Sequence record: PQ724394.1
DNA length: 64,000 nucleotides
Source: a phage
Direction: 5' to 3' (one strand)
Shown: positions 545 to 47,779 of the stretch, piece after piece
Position numbering within the stretch: the stretch's first letter is position 1
How the letters are laid out: every line of letters begins with the position of its first letter
Made by a program: the position numbers and the translations under genes
Notes under the pieces: generated by a model
Told to the model about the DNA's origin: nothing
Database searches by the model: none
Seen by the model: the letters and a program-made list of their open reading frames with translations, nothing else

Positions 545-574
545 ATAGTACCACAAGCTTCCTTGCCTGTAAAC
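545..574 (-). promoter_or_regulatory. early promoter cassette (GTTTAC -35, TAnnAT -10)
   Basis: Copy of the recurring motif GTTTAC-N17/18-TAnnAT-AGACCTATCAAC upstream of the gene starting at 519. Confidence 0.55.
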
Positions 575-1143
575 TAAAAATCCAACATTTTTAAATGAAT
601 TATTTTGTACTCGATTTCGTATGGGTCTCTTTTGATAGTTTCGATTTCCACAATCTCAAATCGTGATAGGCTAGAGACCATGAACTCACATTCGGTTTCG
701 ACCATATCATAGAGGTCAATACGGGTTTCATCTATTTCAAGTTCGTCTACATTCCCTGCAAGAACAAGGTCAATAGCGTGGTTGTAGTAGTCAAAAATGA
801 AGGGTGCATTCCTGAGACTTAAAATAGTTTTGGTTCCATATTCCCATGCCCCTGCGAACTGACGAGCCTGAGAGTATTGTGTACTAAAAGAAGTAACCCG
901 ACCAGGAGACCACTGACATCCGACAGAAAGAACTTCAAGTTGTTCAAGTTCCATAGGGGTAATCCCACGATAAAGCTCTACAGGAACGACTGAAGTAACA
1001 TGCTTACGAACTAGTTTGTCTAGGTCGTAATGGAGGTTAGGGTCTTTTTTGGCATCCAGACATTTCTCTAACAACGCTTGTTCAGATTTTGAAAATTTGG
1101 AATTGATTCGGTCTTGATAAAGGCATTTTTGTTCGATGTTCAT
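574..1143 (-). CDS. ModA/ModB-like ADP-ribosyltransferase (R-S-E type candidate)
   Basis: 189 aa; LYRG, SFSTQ and ECE motifs; tandem paralog of the upstream ORF. Confidence 0.5.
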   Translation of the reverse strand: MNIEQKCLYQDRINSKFSKSEQALLEKCLDAKKDPNLHYDLDKLVRKHVTSVVPVELYRGITPMELEQLEVLSVGCQWSPGRVTSFSTQYSQARQFAGAWEYGTKTILSLRNAPFIFDYYNHAIDLVLAGNVDELEIDETRIDLYDMVETECEFMVSSLSRFEIVEIETIKRDPYEIEYKIIHLKMLDF

Positions 1144-5539: not shown

Positions 5540-5980
5540 TTAACCTCGGTTCATAAAGGCATTAAAAATCTGGTCGTCGATTGAATAAACAGGAGCTTCC
5601 AGAATTTTCAACAGACTGTTTTTGATATACTTGCTAGGGATATCCATATTAACAGCATCGTTCAATTCATTGTCCGGGAGGATGTCTTTAAATTCAAACC
5701 CTTCAAACTCAACCTTGTCAGGAATACCATCAGCGAAAAAATAGACCAATTGGTGCATTGCATTACATGAAAATAATTTAGACCTCACCTCAATAAGTTC
5801 TTGCCAATGGTTTAATTCTCTGTTAAGAAGTTTATGGGCCATTGTAATTCTATCATCACTATCAACAAGAAAATAACCTAGGTACTGGTGGTCGTCGCTC
5901 CAAAACATCCTGTATGCTTGTGCATTTGGATTTTTACAACGAAGCTTTTTGATAACTAAATTTCTGTTAATCTTATTCAC
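5540..5980 (-). CDS. hypothetical protein (146 aa), 61.2-like position
   Basis: ORF in conserved position between 61 and 41. Confidence 0.45.
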   Translation of the reverse strand: MNKINRNLVIKKLRCKNPNAQAYRMFWSDDHQYLGYFLVDSDDRITMAHKLLNRELNHWQELIEVRSKLFSCNAMHQLVYFFADGIPDKVEFEGFEFKDILPDNELNDAVNMDIPSKYIKNSLLKILEAPVYSIDDQIFNAFMNRG

Positions 5981-6294: not shown

Positions 6295-6324
6295 ATAGTA
6301 TCACTACCATAGACCGTTGTAAAC
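6295..6324 (-). promoter_or_regulatory. early promoter cassette
   Basis: Full conserved motif copy upstream of sp. Confidence 0.65.
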
Positions 6325-6325
6325 T

Positions 6326-6565
6326 TTATTTTAACGAATCTTCCAAATAAATTTTACGGAATTTACGTTTTGTCTGACGAATCTGACGCTTAGTAGGCTT
6401 CACAGGAAATTCGAAGAACTCTACGTATTCTTGTTCATAATCGTTGTGACCAACTGAAAGAACTAGTTCCCAGCTGCTTACGGTGCGTTGGATAAACATA
6501 TTATGCTTACCAAAAGATTTATTCCAAAAGGAGCTAGGGGTTGGCTTCATTAATACAATATTCAT
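6326..6565 (-). CDS. hypothetical protein (79 aa)
   Basis: ORF in the 61-41 interval. Confidence 0.4.
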   Translation of the reverse strand: MNIVLMKPTPSSFWNKSFGKHNMFIQRTVSSWELVLSVGHNDYEQEYVEFFEFPVKPTKRQIRQTKRKFRKIYLEDSLK

Positions 6566-6706
6566 TTATTCCTCGTCTTCATGTTTATGAGCAATTTCTT
6601 CGAATTCGCTATCGCAGTCTAAACAGGTTGCATTGTCCCAAGCATCAAATACTGCCTGGTCTTCACATACTGAACAACCACATACTACACATTCAACCTC
6701 TTCCAT

Positions 6707-6910
6707 TTAGATTTCCTCAATGCGGGCATCATATTCAAAAACTTTATTGTCATTAACAAAGGCTTTAACCAGTGCATTATTCACTTCTGCATACTGCACT
6801 GTAACCCATTCAATCATTTTTTGGTCACTAACATCCAGCGCAGTTTCTTTGGTAAACATATTACCGTTTTCAAACCAACCAATAAACACTACGTTCTCTA
6901 ATTTATACAT
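6707..6910 (-). CDS. dmd: Dmd-like antitoxin (discriminator of mRNA degradation, 61.5)
   Basis: 67 aa; resembles T4 Dmd (VVF.GWF.N..MFTKE...QYAEVNKALVKAF); conserved position just before gene 41. Confidence 0.6.
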   Translation of the reverse strand: MYKLENVVFIGWFENGNMFTKETALDVSDQKMIEWVTVQYAEVNNALVKAFVNDNKVFEYDARIEEI

Positions 6911-7240
6911 TTAGATTTCCTCACAGAAGGCCCATTCAGCGTGATAAACCGTAGCGCCTTTGGTATCATTTAAACAAACCACATCTACCGGAGCAATTAC
7001 ACGATAAAGACGAGGTTCTCCTCCCACTGAACGAGCTGCTCGTCCAGCATAAATCTTAGCCAAACCAATATCCTCAGTAAAGAACACACGGTTCAGGTTT
7101 TTCTTACGACCGGTTTCAGACAGAACTCCTGTTTCCTCAGGAGGACAAAGCATATTACCAATATTAGCAAAACTACAACTTCCGTGATAATACACTTTAT
7201 ATTCTGCTTTACAGTCGATGGTTTTCATTTTGTTCTCCAT
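6911..7240 (-). CDS. hypothetical protein; candidate Arr-family (H-G-S) mono-ADP-ribosyltransferase
   Basis: 109 aa; YYHGS at residues 17-21, downstream FFTED and PVD; early promoter cassette upstream; extra gene between dmd and 41 relative to T4. Confidence 0.5.
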   Translation of the reverse strand: MENKMKTIDCKAEYKVYYHGSCSFANIGNMLCPPEETGVLSETGRKKNLNRVFFTEDIGLAKIYAGRAARSVGGEPRLYRVIAPVDVVCLNDTKGATVYHAEWAFCEEI

Positions 7241-7253
7241 TAGTTGATAGGTC

Positions 7254-7283
7254 TATAGTATCATGCCTACAGGAGAAGTAAAC
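7254..7283 (-). promoter_or_regulatory. early promoter cassette
   Basis: Full conserved motif copy upstream of 6911-7240. Confidence 0.65.
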
Positions 7284-7292
7284 CCTTAAAAC

Positions 7293-7313
7293 AAAAAAAG
7301 GAGCCGAAGCTCC
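7293..7313 (-). terminator. intrinsic terminator after gene 41
   Basis: GGAGC-TTCG-GCTCC hairpin plus T7 run. Confidence 0.7.
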
Positions 7314-8753
7314 TTAAAATTTGATAGATGCTGCTAAATCGTCTAAATCGCTTCTATTAACACGTGACTGGCGATTGACCTCTGCTTGGCGGTTCATTTC
7401 ACCTGTGGCCTCACGAACAGTGTTCACTGGGCCTGGGTTAGAATCGTCTTCAACTTCATACCAACGTTGGTTTCCTTTCTTAACACCAATCTTAAATTTG
7501 TTGTAGTAGCTCTTATCGCCATAACGAGATTTAAGCTGCTTAATCATCTGCATACCCATCTGAGCAAACTCTTCTGTCTCGACCACACCTAACATGAAGT
7601 CTGCAGTATGTGCAATACCAAAGGATTCAGCGATATCAGCCATATCGATTTCGGCCGCAACGTTCGCACCACGAGTAGTCTGGGCTGCTGTCCATAGCAA
7701 TAATTTCTTCTCTACTGCAAGACCACGTAGTTCTTCGGCAACCATCTTAATCAATCCGTAACTGTTTTCAGAGAAAACTTTCGTACGGGATGAAGCACAG
7801 ATAGCCAAGTAGTCGACGATAACGACCTGTGGGACAAAGTTTTGTTTGAGCTTGTATTCGTTTAATAATGCACGGAATGTATCGGCATTAGCACCACCAG
7901 TAGGATATTGTTTAATCTTTAAACGACCTAAAGTAGCAGTTGAACGCCACTTATCCATCTTAGCTTTATATTCAGGCCATGAGACGTGACCATCGTCAAT
8001 ATCATCCAGTGATACATCTAGAAGGTTGGCATCGATACGCTTAGCACATACTTCCTCTGCCATCTCCATGGAGATATAAAGAACATCATAACCGGATTGA
8101 AGGTAATCAGCAGCCAATGAACACAGTCCAAGAGACTTACCTACGTTTGTTCCTGCCAACAATACGTTTTCAGTACCAAACTCAGCGCCACCCTTGGTAA
8201 TCTTATTCAGAATATTAAGACGGAATGGAACCTTACGGGCTTTATCAGAATAACTTTTAAAACGTTCTTCATAGTCATCCATCCAGTCATGGCCTAATTC
8301 AGAATCGAAACAAATCGATAATGCATCTCGCATGATATCCGGAATGGCACCAATACCTGGGAGTTTTCTATTTTGTTGCTCAACCGGAAGGTCGGCATTA
8401 GTTTGAATTTCAATAATTTTTGAAGTGGCATTATACATCGCTGCCTTCTGAACATATTTCTCTGTCTCTTTAACCAACCATTCTTGGTCTTCAGGGCCTG
8501 CATTCAGAGAATTTAAAAGCTCTTTAGCTCCTTGATGTTCAACTTCTGAAAGGGTGCTGTTATCTAATGCAATACTCAAAGCATTTTTAGAAGGCACCGC
8601 ATTATATTCATTGACATGTTTTTTGATTTCTTTGAAAAGGGTCTTTGCCGGACCCTGGTCAAAATAAGAATCATTCATATAAGGCCAGACCTTAGTGAAA
8701 TAATCACTATTGCCTAGCAGTTGAGCCAAAATAGTTTCTACCACTTCCACCAC
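7314..8753 (-). CDS. 41: replicative DNA helicase (DnaB-like)
   Basis: 479 aa; Walker A GTNVGKS; N-terminus matches T4 gp41; hairpin terminator immediately downstream. Confidence 0.95.
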   Translation of the reverse strand: MVEVVETILAQLLGNSDYFTKVWPYMNDSYFDQGPAKTLFKEIKKHVNEYNAVPSKNALSIALDNSTLSEVEHQGAKELLNSLNAGPEDQEWLVKETEKYVQKAAMYNATSKIIEIQTNADLPVEQQNRKLPGIGAIPDIMRDALSICFDSELGHDWMDDYEERFKSYSDKARKVPFRLNILNKITKGGAEFGTENVLLAGTNVGKSLGLCSLAADYLQSGYDVLYISMEMAEEVCAKRIDANLLDVSLDDIDDGHVSWPEYKAKMDKWRSTATLGRLKIKQYPTGGANADTFRALLNEYKLKQNFVPQVVIVDYLAICASSRTKVFSENSYGLIKMVAEELRGLAVEKKLLLWTAAQTTRGANVAAEIDMADIAESFGIAHTADFMLGVVETEEFAQMGMQMIKQLKSRYGDKSYYNKFKIGVKKGNQRWYEVEDDSNPGPVNTVREATGEMNRQAEVNRQSRVNRSDLDDLAASIKF

Positions 8754-42185: not shown

Positions 42186-42373
42186 TATTCTTCTACATGC
42201 TGTTTACGTTTATTTTTATCTATAAAAGTATATTCAACATATTCACCGATATACCATTTATCCGTGTTGTGTTGGCTTTTTATAGGGCATTTAGTTACTC
42301 GGGTTTCGGTCCAGCGCCGAATAATTTCGGCTTTGTTTTTAGGGTCAAACGGATGTGGGTAGTGTGCTTTCAT
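42161..42373 (-). CDS. hypothetical protein (70 aa)
   Basis: ORF. Confidence 0.35.
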   Translation of the reverse strand: MKAHYPHPFDPKNKAEIIRRWTETRVTKCPIKSQHNTDKWYIGEYVEYTFIDKNKRKQHVEEYCLKVQWL

Positions 42374-42824
42374 AATCCACCACTATTAAATCAATATCAG
42401 GGGTAAACATGTCGATTAATTTAGAAACCTTGTCCCAATCACCGCCAGCAATACCACAACCAATGCGAGGAATATAAATTCTTGGTTTAAACAAAAGAGT
42501 TTCTGCTTGTAGATTTAATTCTATCATACAGTTTACTAAAGCACCGTAATCAAGATTAGGGCCTGGTTCGTATTGTGTATACAAGTTATAGCACATACCA
42601 AACCCTGCAGGCTTATGTTTAAAAACAATAGACATGTCGCCTAATTTATCACGAGAACCGTATTCAGTAGTGGTCTTATCAATTTCTAATATTTTAGGAT
42701 AGGCTCTTGCTAATTGACCAGCAACACCTGAACCCATAGTATGAAAACAGTTGCACCCATGTGCAATAATATTACCTTGGAGAAACAGGGCGACGATATC
42801 GCCCTTAATATAATCAATAATCAT
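42345..42824 (-). CDS. macro-domain protein (ADP-ribose binding/hydrolase family)
   Basis: 159 aa; macro motifs HGCNCF.TMGSGVAGQL and PRIGCGIAGG. Confidence 0.7.
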   Translation of the reverse strand: MIIDYIKGDIVALFLQGNIIAHGCNCFHTMGSGVAGQLARAYPKILEIDKTTTEYGSRDKLGDMSIVFKHKPAGFGMCYNLYTQYEPGPNLDYGALVNCMIELNLQAETLLFKPRIYIPRIGCGIAGGDWDKVSKLIDMFTPDIDLIVVDYESTLPTSV

Positions 42825-47103: not shown

Positions 47104-47550
47104 TCAAAAGAGTGAATCTAAAACCTTAAACATCGACTGGCCCATGACGTATTCCCATTGCGGACGTTTAATCAAAGCGAAAGCGTCGAATTCTGGAATC
47201 GTACGACCATCAGGGAACGTATGGTAAGCCGTACATTTGCAATTCTTGAACTGCTCGTGTTCGACAGGCACAGTATATAAGAACAGGTGTAGATTCTTAT
47301 TGCTTGAATATTTGAACTCACCTAGGTCTTTCAGGAACGCAGGGTCGTATGCCGTGAATCCAATCTCTTCTTCGGTTTCACGCATTGCTGCTTGAATAGG
47401 CTCTTCGCCTGGTTCGACATGACCTTTAGGAATGTCCCATTTATGACGCATGTTCTCTGGATTACGAGAGCCTGTTACACGACCCATAACCAATTCTTTA
47501 TCGGCGGTCATGAACAAAATACCTGCGGATAATTCTTTAACTTTACTCAT
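47104..47550 (-). CDS. nudE: Nudix hydrolase
   Basis: Nudix box [23 protein letters not shown]; start at [10 protein letters not shown]. Confidence 0.8.
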
Positions 47551-47779
47551 CGTCTCGTTTCCATGATTGTTCAAAAATATCTCGTATAATAATTTCAACA
47601 CACGTTTCTGTTGACGGACTTTCACTATCAGATATTTGGACCATATAATCAGAAATAGGTCGGAACAAATCCAAGTCGCTTTCTAAATCTTCTTTGATTT
47701 TCTCTTCTGATGTTCCAGTGTCATAGGAATACAGATACGAATCGCATGACTCGGATTTAATATAAATCGCAATACTCAT
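47543..47779 (-). CDS. hypothetical acidic protein (78 aa)
   Basis: ORF. Confidence 0.4.
   Translation of the reverse strand: MSIAIYIKSESCDSYLYSYDTGTSEEKIKEDLESDLDLFRPISDYMVQISDSESPSTETCVEIIIRDIFEQSWKRDDE

Follow-up and report, generated by a model that had tools for sequence, protein, structure and literature searches.

A minimal Arr-like ADP-ribosyltransferase domain encoded upstream of dmd in a T4-type phage: a candidate early effector against the host

What is the function of a small gene that a T4-type phage carries between helicase gene 41 and the antitoxin gene dmd, at a position where T4 itself has no gene and only 58 nucleotides (nt)? The gene lies on the minus strand, at positions 6911-7240 of a 64,000-nt stretch of phage DNA (sequence record PQ724394.1; hereafter 'the window') that belongs to a Dhakavirus (JS98-like). 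An original prediction, made from the sequence alone, had rightly noted that T4 lacks the gene and had proposed that its product is a small ADP-ribosyltransferase (ART) related to the rifampin ADP-ribosyltransferase Arr. Our computational comparisons identify the product as an ART domain homologous to Arr over residues ~9-101, and the same comparisons place it in a sister family of Arr within the ART superfamily, not among the Arr orthologues.

Definition of the protein requires definition of its start codon. The open reading frame (ORF) listed for this locus encodes 109 residues from its first ATG. The ORF of the original prediction is present as described; its start very probably is not, and we conclude that translation very probably begins at the second ATG, at position 7228, to yield a 105-residue protein. 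This start is preferred because the profile of PHROG 2110 fits at full length (all 105 positions align to residues 5-109 of the 109-residue numbering, E 3e-60), because the annotated coding sequence (CDS) of the JS98 orthologue is 318 nt long, because the upstream ATG is not conserved (CAACTAATGGAG in the window vs. CAACTTGGAG in JS98), and because of the spacing of a GGAG Shine-Dalgarno sequence upstream of the second ATG. The three segments singled out earlier are all in place (YYHGS at residues 17-21, FFTED at residues 53-57, and PVD at residues 84-86 of the 109-residue numbering). Residue numbers below refer to the 105-residue protein unless stated otherwise, so that the first of these segments becomes Y13-Y14-H15-G16-S17. 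The ORF is 98-99% identical to its orthologues in JS98, IME08, and VR5, pairwise dN/dS (ratio of non-synonymous to synonymous substitution rates) against orthologues is 0.10-0.19, indicating strong purifying selection, and the gene order of the locus agrees with that of JS98.

The relationship to Arr is apparent at the level of profiles. Alignment of the family profile with an alignment of 28 true Arr proteins, using hhalign, yields a probability of 97.1% (E 5e-11); the match stops at residue 84 with default settings and reaches residue 101 with relaxed settings. The Pfam family Arr-ms is matched by 34 of 52 diverse members, with a best E of 1.2e-8, and no other family is consistently matched; several members located inside large proteins exceed the Pfam gathering score, with 27-31 bits. 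Comparison of a diverse-domain profile with the sequences in the PDB retrieves Arr (2HW2/9IAF, E 1.9e-4) and Arr-2 (9IBA, E 4.6e-3), with one further row only, an aminotransferase at E 1.7 that we regard as noise; searches of the PDB sequences with the single sequence and with a close-family profile give no match. The predicted structural model exhibits the split beta-sheet fold of ARTs, and not a non-ART fold. The Arr-like reading of the original prediction thus finds support in the profile alignment, in Arr as the only meaningful PDB match, and in the matches of diverse members to Arr-ms.

The signature of the family, H-G-[ST], is by itself a weak signal; by our estimate, ~2% of proteins this long would contain it by chance. 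Its invariance across the family, together with the support from profile and fold, establishes that here the motif is more than chance. The motif could have been lost among homologs, and it was not: 111 of 113 near-full-length homologs retain it, and the remaining two are a protein with a chimeric N-terminus and a metagenomic H-to-Y variant. In the metagenomic variant (P0053), FYYGS replaces FYHGS, so that the catalytic His becomes Tyr; sequencing error or natural inactivation is possible. A profile search of 1.8 billion representative proteins yields 242 relatives, and in an alignment of 103 diverse domains the motif is conserved at 100% (H), 100% (G), and 99% ([TS]). The positions conserved at 97-100% in these 103 domains (numbers adjusted by +1 for an insert state) are H15, G16, [TS]17, P29-P30, T33, E38, R41, V48-F49, T51, A57, Y60-A61, R/K63, G69-G70, G91, and A100; they include E38 (98%) and R41 (97%) in a basic loop, and, in strand beta2, position 49 (F 98%, Y 1%) and T51 (97%).

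The family is widespread in phages. Homologs are found by tblastn in 610 phage records, with the match spanning at least 80% of the query in 601 of them, and the host genera include Escherichia, Klebsiella, Acinetobacter, Aeromonas, Enterobacter, Shigella, Cronobacter, Vibrio, Citrobacter, Proteus, Morganella, and Erwinia. Outside the 41-dmd locus of T4-like phages, the gene occurs elsewhere in the genome in Slopekvirus, Pseudotevenvirus, Tulanevirus, and Lazarusvirus, beside unrelated small ORFs, and a divergent stand-alone member is located in a phage-like contig. A search of plasmids found no homolog, and a PADLOC scan gave no match. Most annotations of the 610 records assign the gene no function. 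The ART assignment is nevertheless not new: a few GenBank records read 'putative ADP-ribosyl transferase', the assignment was very probably made by Iyer et al. (2022), and no experimental work on this protein came up in our literature searches. Among 148 representative proteins the domain is stand-alone (160 residues or fewer) in 91, C-terminal in 30, internal in 21, and N-terminal in 6. The proteins that bear it reach 3924 residues, and the large proteins scanned also contain an ART-PolyVal, NUDIX, GNAT, Toprim, DUF7178, or minor-tail/tape-measure (PhageMin_Tail) module. This architecture is that of polyvalent or virion-delivered effectors and supports a role as an effector that acts on the host as infection begins.

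Residue-level alignment shows which parts of the Arr active site are retained. H15 and G16 align with Arr-ms His19 and Gly20, E38-x-G-R41 with E40-x-G-R43, F49 with Tyr49, T51 with Thr51, and A57 with Ala57; the segment V-F49-F-T51 is thus aligned with I-Y49-I-T51 of Arr, and a G69-G70...Y75-x-V77 hairpin and a late G91...Y95 strand also align. The residues assigned to the NAD pocket, H15-G16-S/T17, F49-x-T51, A57, and Y60, are invariant in the family. According to the Arr structure paper, from which we also assigned the D-loop position, the backbone of Gly20 lies in the nicotinamide site, Ala57 is the floor of the pocket, and activity requires His19, Tyr49, and Asp84 (the H-Y-D triad), with Asp84 lying near rifampicin O23; the paper also mentions H-Y-E/I/L/Y variants. 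In the phage protein, Y60 sits 11 residues past F49. The same spacing separates the two nicotinamide-stacking tyrosines of ARTs of the diphtheria toxin/PARP type, and an aromatic residue of the Arr Tyr49 type stacks on nicotinamide.

The genomic context of the gene points to early expression and to counter-defence. The pattern GTTTAC-N16-18-TANNAT occurs at 19 sites in the window, from 545 to 57737, all on the minus strand, vs. 0.64 expected by chance, and these sites are evidently the early promoters of the phage. Many of the copies have a near-identical spacer (e.g. ...TCTCCAGTAGGCATGATACTAT). One of the 19 sites, of the same form as T4's own dmd promoter, lies immediately upstream of the ART gene (Table 1), as expected from the early promoter that the original prediction had attributed to it. 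From this upstream promoter, the position of the next promoter after gp61.4, and the zero-length intergenic gaps, we conclude that ART, dmd, orf46, and 61.4 form one early transcription unit with ART as first cistron. The counterpart in T4 is a two-gene unit, dmd-tifA(61.4), with an early promoter, and T4 dmd, tifA, and adfA(61.2) inhibit the host toxins RnlA/LsoA, ToxN, and DarT. Since T4 has only 58 nt between 41 and dmd, the ART gene is an extra first cistron inserted into the 41-61 anti-toxin counter-defence cluster, and a function in counter-defence is suggested through guilt by association. Past the next promoter follow spackle and further genes up to primase gene 61.

Table 1. Positions in the window of the ART gene, its sequence elements, and its neighbours
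Feature	Position	Strand	Basis
CDS of 105-residue Arr-like minimal ART (alternative ATG at 7240 would give 109 residues)	6911-7228	-	ORF list, PHROG 2110, JS98, dN/dS, ART fold
Shine-Dalgarno sequence GGAG, 7-10 nt upstream of ATG-7228	7235-7238	-	Read from sequence
H15-G16-S17 codons, predicted H-G-[ST] NAD-binding motif (Arr His19-Gly20-Thr21)	7178-7186	-	Conservation, alignment to Arr
E38-T-G-R41-K-K-N44 codons, family-specific basic loop at Arr/PARP D-loop position	7097-7117	-	Conservation, alignment to Arr
F49-F50-T51 codons, strand beta2; F49 at position of Arr Tyr49	7076-7084	-	Alignment to Arr IYIT
Y60-A-G-R63 codons, central helix	7040-7051	-	Y60 99%, R/K63 97% conserved
T4-type early promoter GTTTAC-N17-TACTAT, heading ART-dmd-orf46-61.4 unit	7255-7283	-	19-site scan, likeness to T4 dmd-tifA early promoter
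Helicase gene 41	8753-7314	-	Gene order
Intrinsic terminator AAGGAGC-TTCG-GCTCCTT plus T-run, end of gene 41	7298-7315	-	Terminator scan
dmd, antitoxin against RnlA/LsoA; ATG abuts ART stop codon	6707-6910	-	Pfam Dmd E 2.3e-20, JS98 annotation
orf46, 46-residue Cys-rich protein, third cistron	6566-6706	-	PHROG 13952
gp61.4 (TifA-like), fourth cistron	6326-6565	-	Pfam DUF7279, JS98 annotation 'T4 gp61.4-like', tifA = 61.4
Next early promoter, just past gp61.4	6295-6324	-	19-site scan
Junction GAGGAAATCTAAATG (Shine-Dalgarno sequence, stop, start) between ART and dmd	6908-6922	-	Exact 15-nt repeat
Identical GAGGAAATCTAAATG copy between dmd and orf46	6704-6718	-	Exact 15-nt repeat

We infer, with a probability of about 0.55, that the protein is an early NAD+ (nicotinamide adenine dinucleotide)-dependent mono-ART that modifies a host macromolecule in the service of takeover or counter-defence. 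According to this reading, a stand-alone minimal (~95-105-residue) NAD+-binding ART domain, representing a phage-borne sister family of Arr, would within minutes of infection use NAD+ to mono-ADP-ribosylate a host macromolecule, and would serve as a host-takeover or counter-defence effector, a fourth 'writer' beside enzymes of the Alt/ModA/ModB type. The acceptor would preferentially be phosphate-bearing or nucleic acid, or a protein modified by substrate-assisted catalysis, over a rifamycin-type small molecule. We favour such an acceptor because the Asp of Arr is missing, because a conserved E-x-G-R-K-K-N loop and R63 lie around the presumed acceptor side, because structural comparison finds its best match in the NAD lobe of Tpt1/KptA, and because the operon partners counter RNase toxins.

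Several observations weigh against this reading. The single sequence scores below the cut-off of Pfam Arr-ms (PF12120; E 0.05, 14.2 bits vs. 25) and far below the equivalog cut-off of the NCBIfam Arr model (NF033144; 12.4 bits vs. 130), Foldseek comparison of the model with the PDB gives weak E-values (0.06-0.3), and the D-loop region is modelled with lower confidence (predicted local distance difference test scores of 64-74). Tyr49 of Arr is Phe here, as in 98% of the family, and the invariant E-D-D-P-N motif of Arr has no counterpart. The relaxed hhalign alignment sets Arr Asp83-Asp84 opposite C85-L86, in a region of low confidence, and position 86 is L/I/V/M in ~85% of the family. In their C-terminal half, the 103 diverse domains share no acidic residue that is conserved throughout the family: D82 and D88 are conserved in the T4-like clade only, and across the wider family D or E occupies position 82 in 57% and E occupies position 84 in 51%. 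The acidic residue of the PVD segment that had been pointed out earlier is D82; with this degree of conservation, and with L86 opposite Arr Asp84 in the low-confidence alignment, it is not supported as the catalytic residue. E103 and E104 were also considered and rejected; they are conserved in the T4-like clade only, and GAGGAA, which encodes them, also serves the following gene as its Shine-Dalgarno sequence, so that catalysis need not be the reason for their conservation. On these grounds the protein may transfer ADP-ribose poorly or in an atypical way, may be an NADase, or may do no more than bind, and the choice of target comes from composition and context only.

This alignment gives an apparent triad of H-F-hydrophobic. 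A hydrophobic third residue also occurs in active transferases, such as Tpt1 (H-H-hydrophobic) and the H-Y-I/L mono-ART PARPs, and is therefore no argument for inactivity. What the predicted triad does argue against is Arr-type chemistry on a rifamycin hydroxyl.

If the protein is an early mono-ART of the kind proposed, it would extend a classic system. The textbook example of phage ADP-ribosylation, T4, has three enzymes of the R-S-E type (Alt, ModA, and ModB). Like those enzymes, the present protein would be a phage-encoded early ART that reprograms the host; unlike them (R-S-E clade, ~200-680 residues), it is of the H-type, Arr-like, ~100 residues long, and unrelated in sequence. The gene would add to T4-like phages a fourth and evolutionarily distinct, H-type writer. 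Its points of interest are its minimal size, its unusual triad, its wide spread in T4-like phages, and its place as first cistron of the dmd-tifA unit. A size close to the minimum possible for an ART domain makes the protein attractive for structural and engineering work, and because it heads an operon of proven anti-toxin counter-defence genes, a new takeover or anti-defence mechanism, possibly on RNA, may come to light through its target.

The adjacency of the gene to dmd has suggested a different role. Iyer, Burroughs, Anantharaman, and Aravind (2022; PMC9503650) predicted a phage toxin-antitoxin pair, 'p0068-family ART + Dmd', in Escherichia, Shigella, and Salmonella phages, assigned the ART to the H-Y-[EDQ] clade, and speculated that its target is RNA; the window gene is very probably a member of their p0068 family, matched by description and not by accession. 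According to this hypothesis, the ART is the toxin of a type II pair that modifies RNA or another essential target, and the coupled Dmd neutralizes it in addition to acting against RnlA/LsoA. The arrangement in the window is that expected of such a pair, with the ART stop codon abutting the dmd ATG and the dmd Shine-Dalgarno sequence inside ART codons, and the C-terminal placement of the domain in 30 of the 148 representative proteins is often seen for toxin domains. Linkage across the family, however, is not observed. In a survey of 66 viral loci, Dmd lies downstream of the ART in 10, all close relatives from the closest Escherichia-phage clade, and is absent within 3 kb downstream in the other 56, even by iterated search. 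In other genera, the small ORFs that follow the ART do not encode Dmd; in L015, L020, L021, and L023 the ART is joined directly to an orf46 homolog; and T4 has dmd alone, without an ART at this locus. A search of the 66 loci for a conserved partner (antitoxin, immunity, or eraser) found none, with downstream neighbours falling into 31 unrelated clusters and upstream neighbours into 29.

The adjacency can be explained otherwise. The 15-nt junction GAGGAAATCTAAATG is present in two exact copies, vs. 0.03 expected, that bracket dmd (Table 1), and related phages have this junction between the ART and orf46 or other genes. The shared junction suggests that dmd is gained and lost as a cassette by microhomology, and, because it accounts for that gain and loss, adjacency would reflect modular shuffling and not obligate function. 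We infer that the ART is not an obligate partner of Dmd. The order with the toxin first, the promoter upstream of the ART, and the lytic lifestyle of the phage also give no call for addiction. The survey weakens the published suggestion of an ART-Dmd toxin-antitoxin pair, and we regard a toxin role as improbable. Besides gene 41 upstream and Dmd downstream, the only recurrent neighbour in the 66 loci is a protein of ~250-295 residues that precedes the ART in 11 of them, in Klebsiella, Cronobacter, and Aeromonas phages (e.g. L024 2086-2970, L002 1613-2482, and L004 1690-2448); it has no homolog in the window and no Pfam domain. In L014 (3532-3873) and L017 (3492-3824), dmd is followed by a second, longer Dmd-like ORF (~110 residues; jackhmmer E ~1e-14) that looks like a tandem Dmd paralog.

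The relationship to Arr raises the further possibility of a small-molecule substrate, i.e. that the protein inactivates an RNA polymerase inhibitor of the rifamycin type, some other antibiotic, or a diffusible compound used in defence or signalling, and so protects the host RNA polymerase that the phage needs or disarms a chemical defence. T4-type phages rely on host RNA polymerase throughout infection. Arr is the closest sequence relative, the protein is predicted to be a stand-alone enzyme with no targeting domain, and true Arr genes occur in some actinophages (Iyer et al., 2022; PMC9503650). Against this possibility stand several differences from Arr. Compared with Arr proteins (PF12120, NF033144; 2HW2, 9IAF, 9IBA), which have ~135-143 residues, the phage protein ends at residue 105 and is 30-40 residues shorter, with no C-terminal helical part; the alignment reaches Arr residue ~98 of 135, the last ~35-40 residues of Arr are missing, and the invariant EDDPN motif, with catalytic Asp84, and the invariant F-P-G-N-P-T motif are absent. 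In addition, the D-loop is 4 residues longer and contains R-K-K-N, WGAEL of Arr is replaced by IYAGRA, and the hallmark of the family is a basic loop and not a hydrophobic cleft. Since it falls outside the Arr equivalogs, the protein is unlikely to use a rifampin-type substrate, and we assign the broader small-molecule hypothesis a similarly low likelihood.

At the other extreme, the protein might not transfer ADP-ribose at all, and might instead consume NAD+ as a glycohydrolase or, by binding NAD or ADP-ribose, act as a decoy or sponge towards immune signals derived from NAD or towards ART or NADase defence effectors of the host. Phages encode sponges against nucleotide signals. An NAD pocket that is invariant, yet accompanied by no identifiable conserved catalytic acid, in a very small protein is consistent with such a role. 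Active transferases with a hydrophobic third residue, conserved surface Arg and Lys residues that suggest an acceptor site, and the presence of homologous domains in effector arrays beside other enzymes argue the other way, and we consider a non-transferase role doubtful. The last alternative, that the protein is not an ART and that H-G-S arose by chance in a small phage protein of another kind, could appeal to the low information content of a tripeptide, to the E of 0.05 of the single sequence to Pfam Arr-ms, and to the absence of a PDB sequence match, but is effectively refuted.

A more specific version of the proposed mono-ART activity, speculative and on balance unlikely, would make the protein the smallest natural ART known (~95-105 residues), with an H-F-hydrophobic triad; as in Tpt1/KptA, a nucleic-acid phosphate oxygen would attack NAD+, and the enzyme would cap terminal phosphates of host or defence RNAs with ADP-ribose. 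If this were true, substrates could include tRNA or mRNA fragments from RnlA, ToxN, or PrrC-type nucleases, or antitoxin RNAs, the dmd-tifA anti-RNase-toxin operon would be led by an enzyme gene, the ART, and the macro-domain and NudE proteins of the window would be candidate erasers or processors. The NAD+-binding C-terminal lobe of Tpt1/KptA (9LD3, 1WFX, 6E3A) is the best structural match of the phage protein. The phage protein, however, lacks the N-terminal RNA-binding lobe that bears the Arg-His-Arg of the catalytic tetrad, and has Phe at the second catalytic position, which is His in Tpt1/KptA. Because hhalign alignment to Tpt1 C-terminal lobes is weak (11.9%), kinship to Tpt1 is structural only.

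Two further systems were compared. AcrF11 (6KYF), from a different phage group, has 19% identity and no detectable sequence-profile relationship. ART-PolyVal (PF18760) co-occurs with domains of the present family in the same giant proteins, beside NUDIX, GNAT, Toprim, and a tape-measure-like module, but is a separate family, weakly matched by only 1 of 52 members.

The window contains further candidate genes of ADP-ribose metabolism, and the multi-component ADP-ribosylation toolkit of the original prediction is indeed present. An ORF of 189 residues at 574-1143 (-) has no Pfam match and is Mod-like by PHROG 832, 'RNA polymerase ADP-ribosylase' (E 1e-37). A 159-residue protein at 42345-42824 (-) matches Pfam Macro (31.6 bits vs. 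cut-off 22), and a NudE-like NUDIX protein is encoded at 47104-47625 (-). The macro-domain and NudE-like proteins are possible erasers or processors of ADP-ribose. An early-promoter-like site is located at 545-574 (-), just downstream of the Mod-like ORF.

Some minor features of the locus can be added. A terminator-like hairpin, CTCCTGAGGAAACAGGAG, lies inside the ART CDS at 7126-7143 (-), codons ~29-35; its tail is T-poor, and it is probably a chance match. The product of orf46, for which T4 has nothing at the corresponding position between dmd and 61.4, is highly acidic, with cysteines in the arrangement C6-x2-C9-x-C11-x2-C14 ... C28-x2-C31, and looks like a small zinc-ribbon protein. Finally, the position of T4 61.2/adfA is occupied by an ORF of 146 residues at 5540-5980 (-), which belongs to PHROG 8539 and resembles Pfam AdfA only faintly, below cut-off, over the final 15 residues of that model (E 0.006); an anti-DarT factor may here have been replaced or have diverged strongly.

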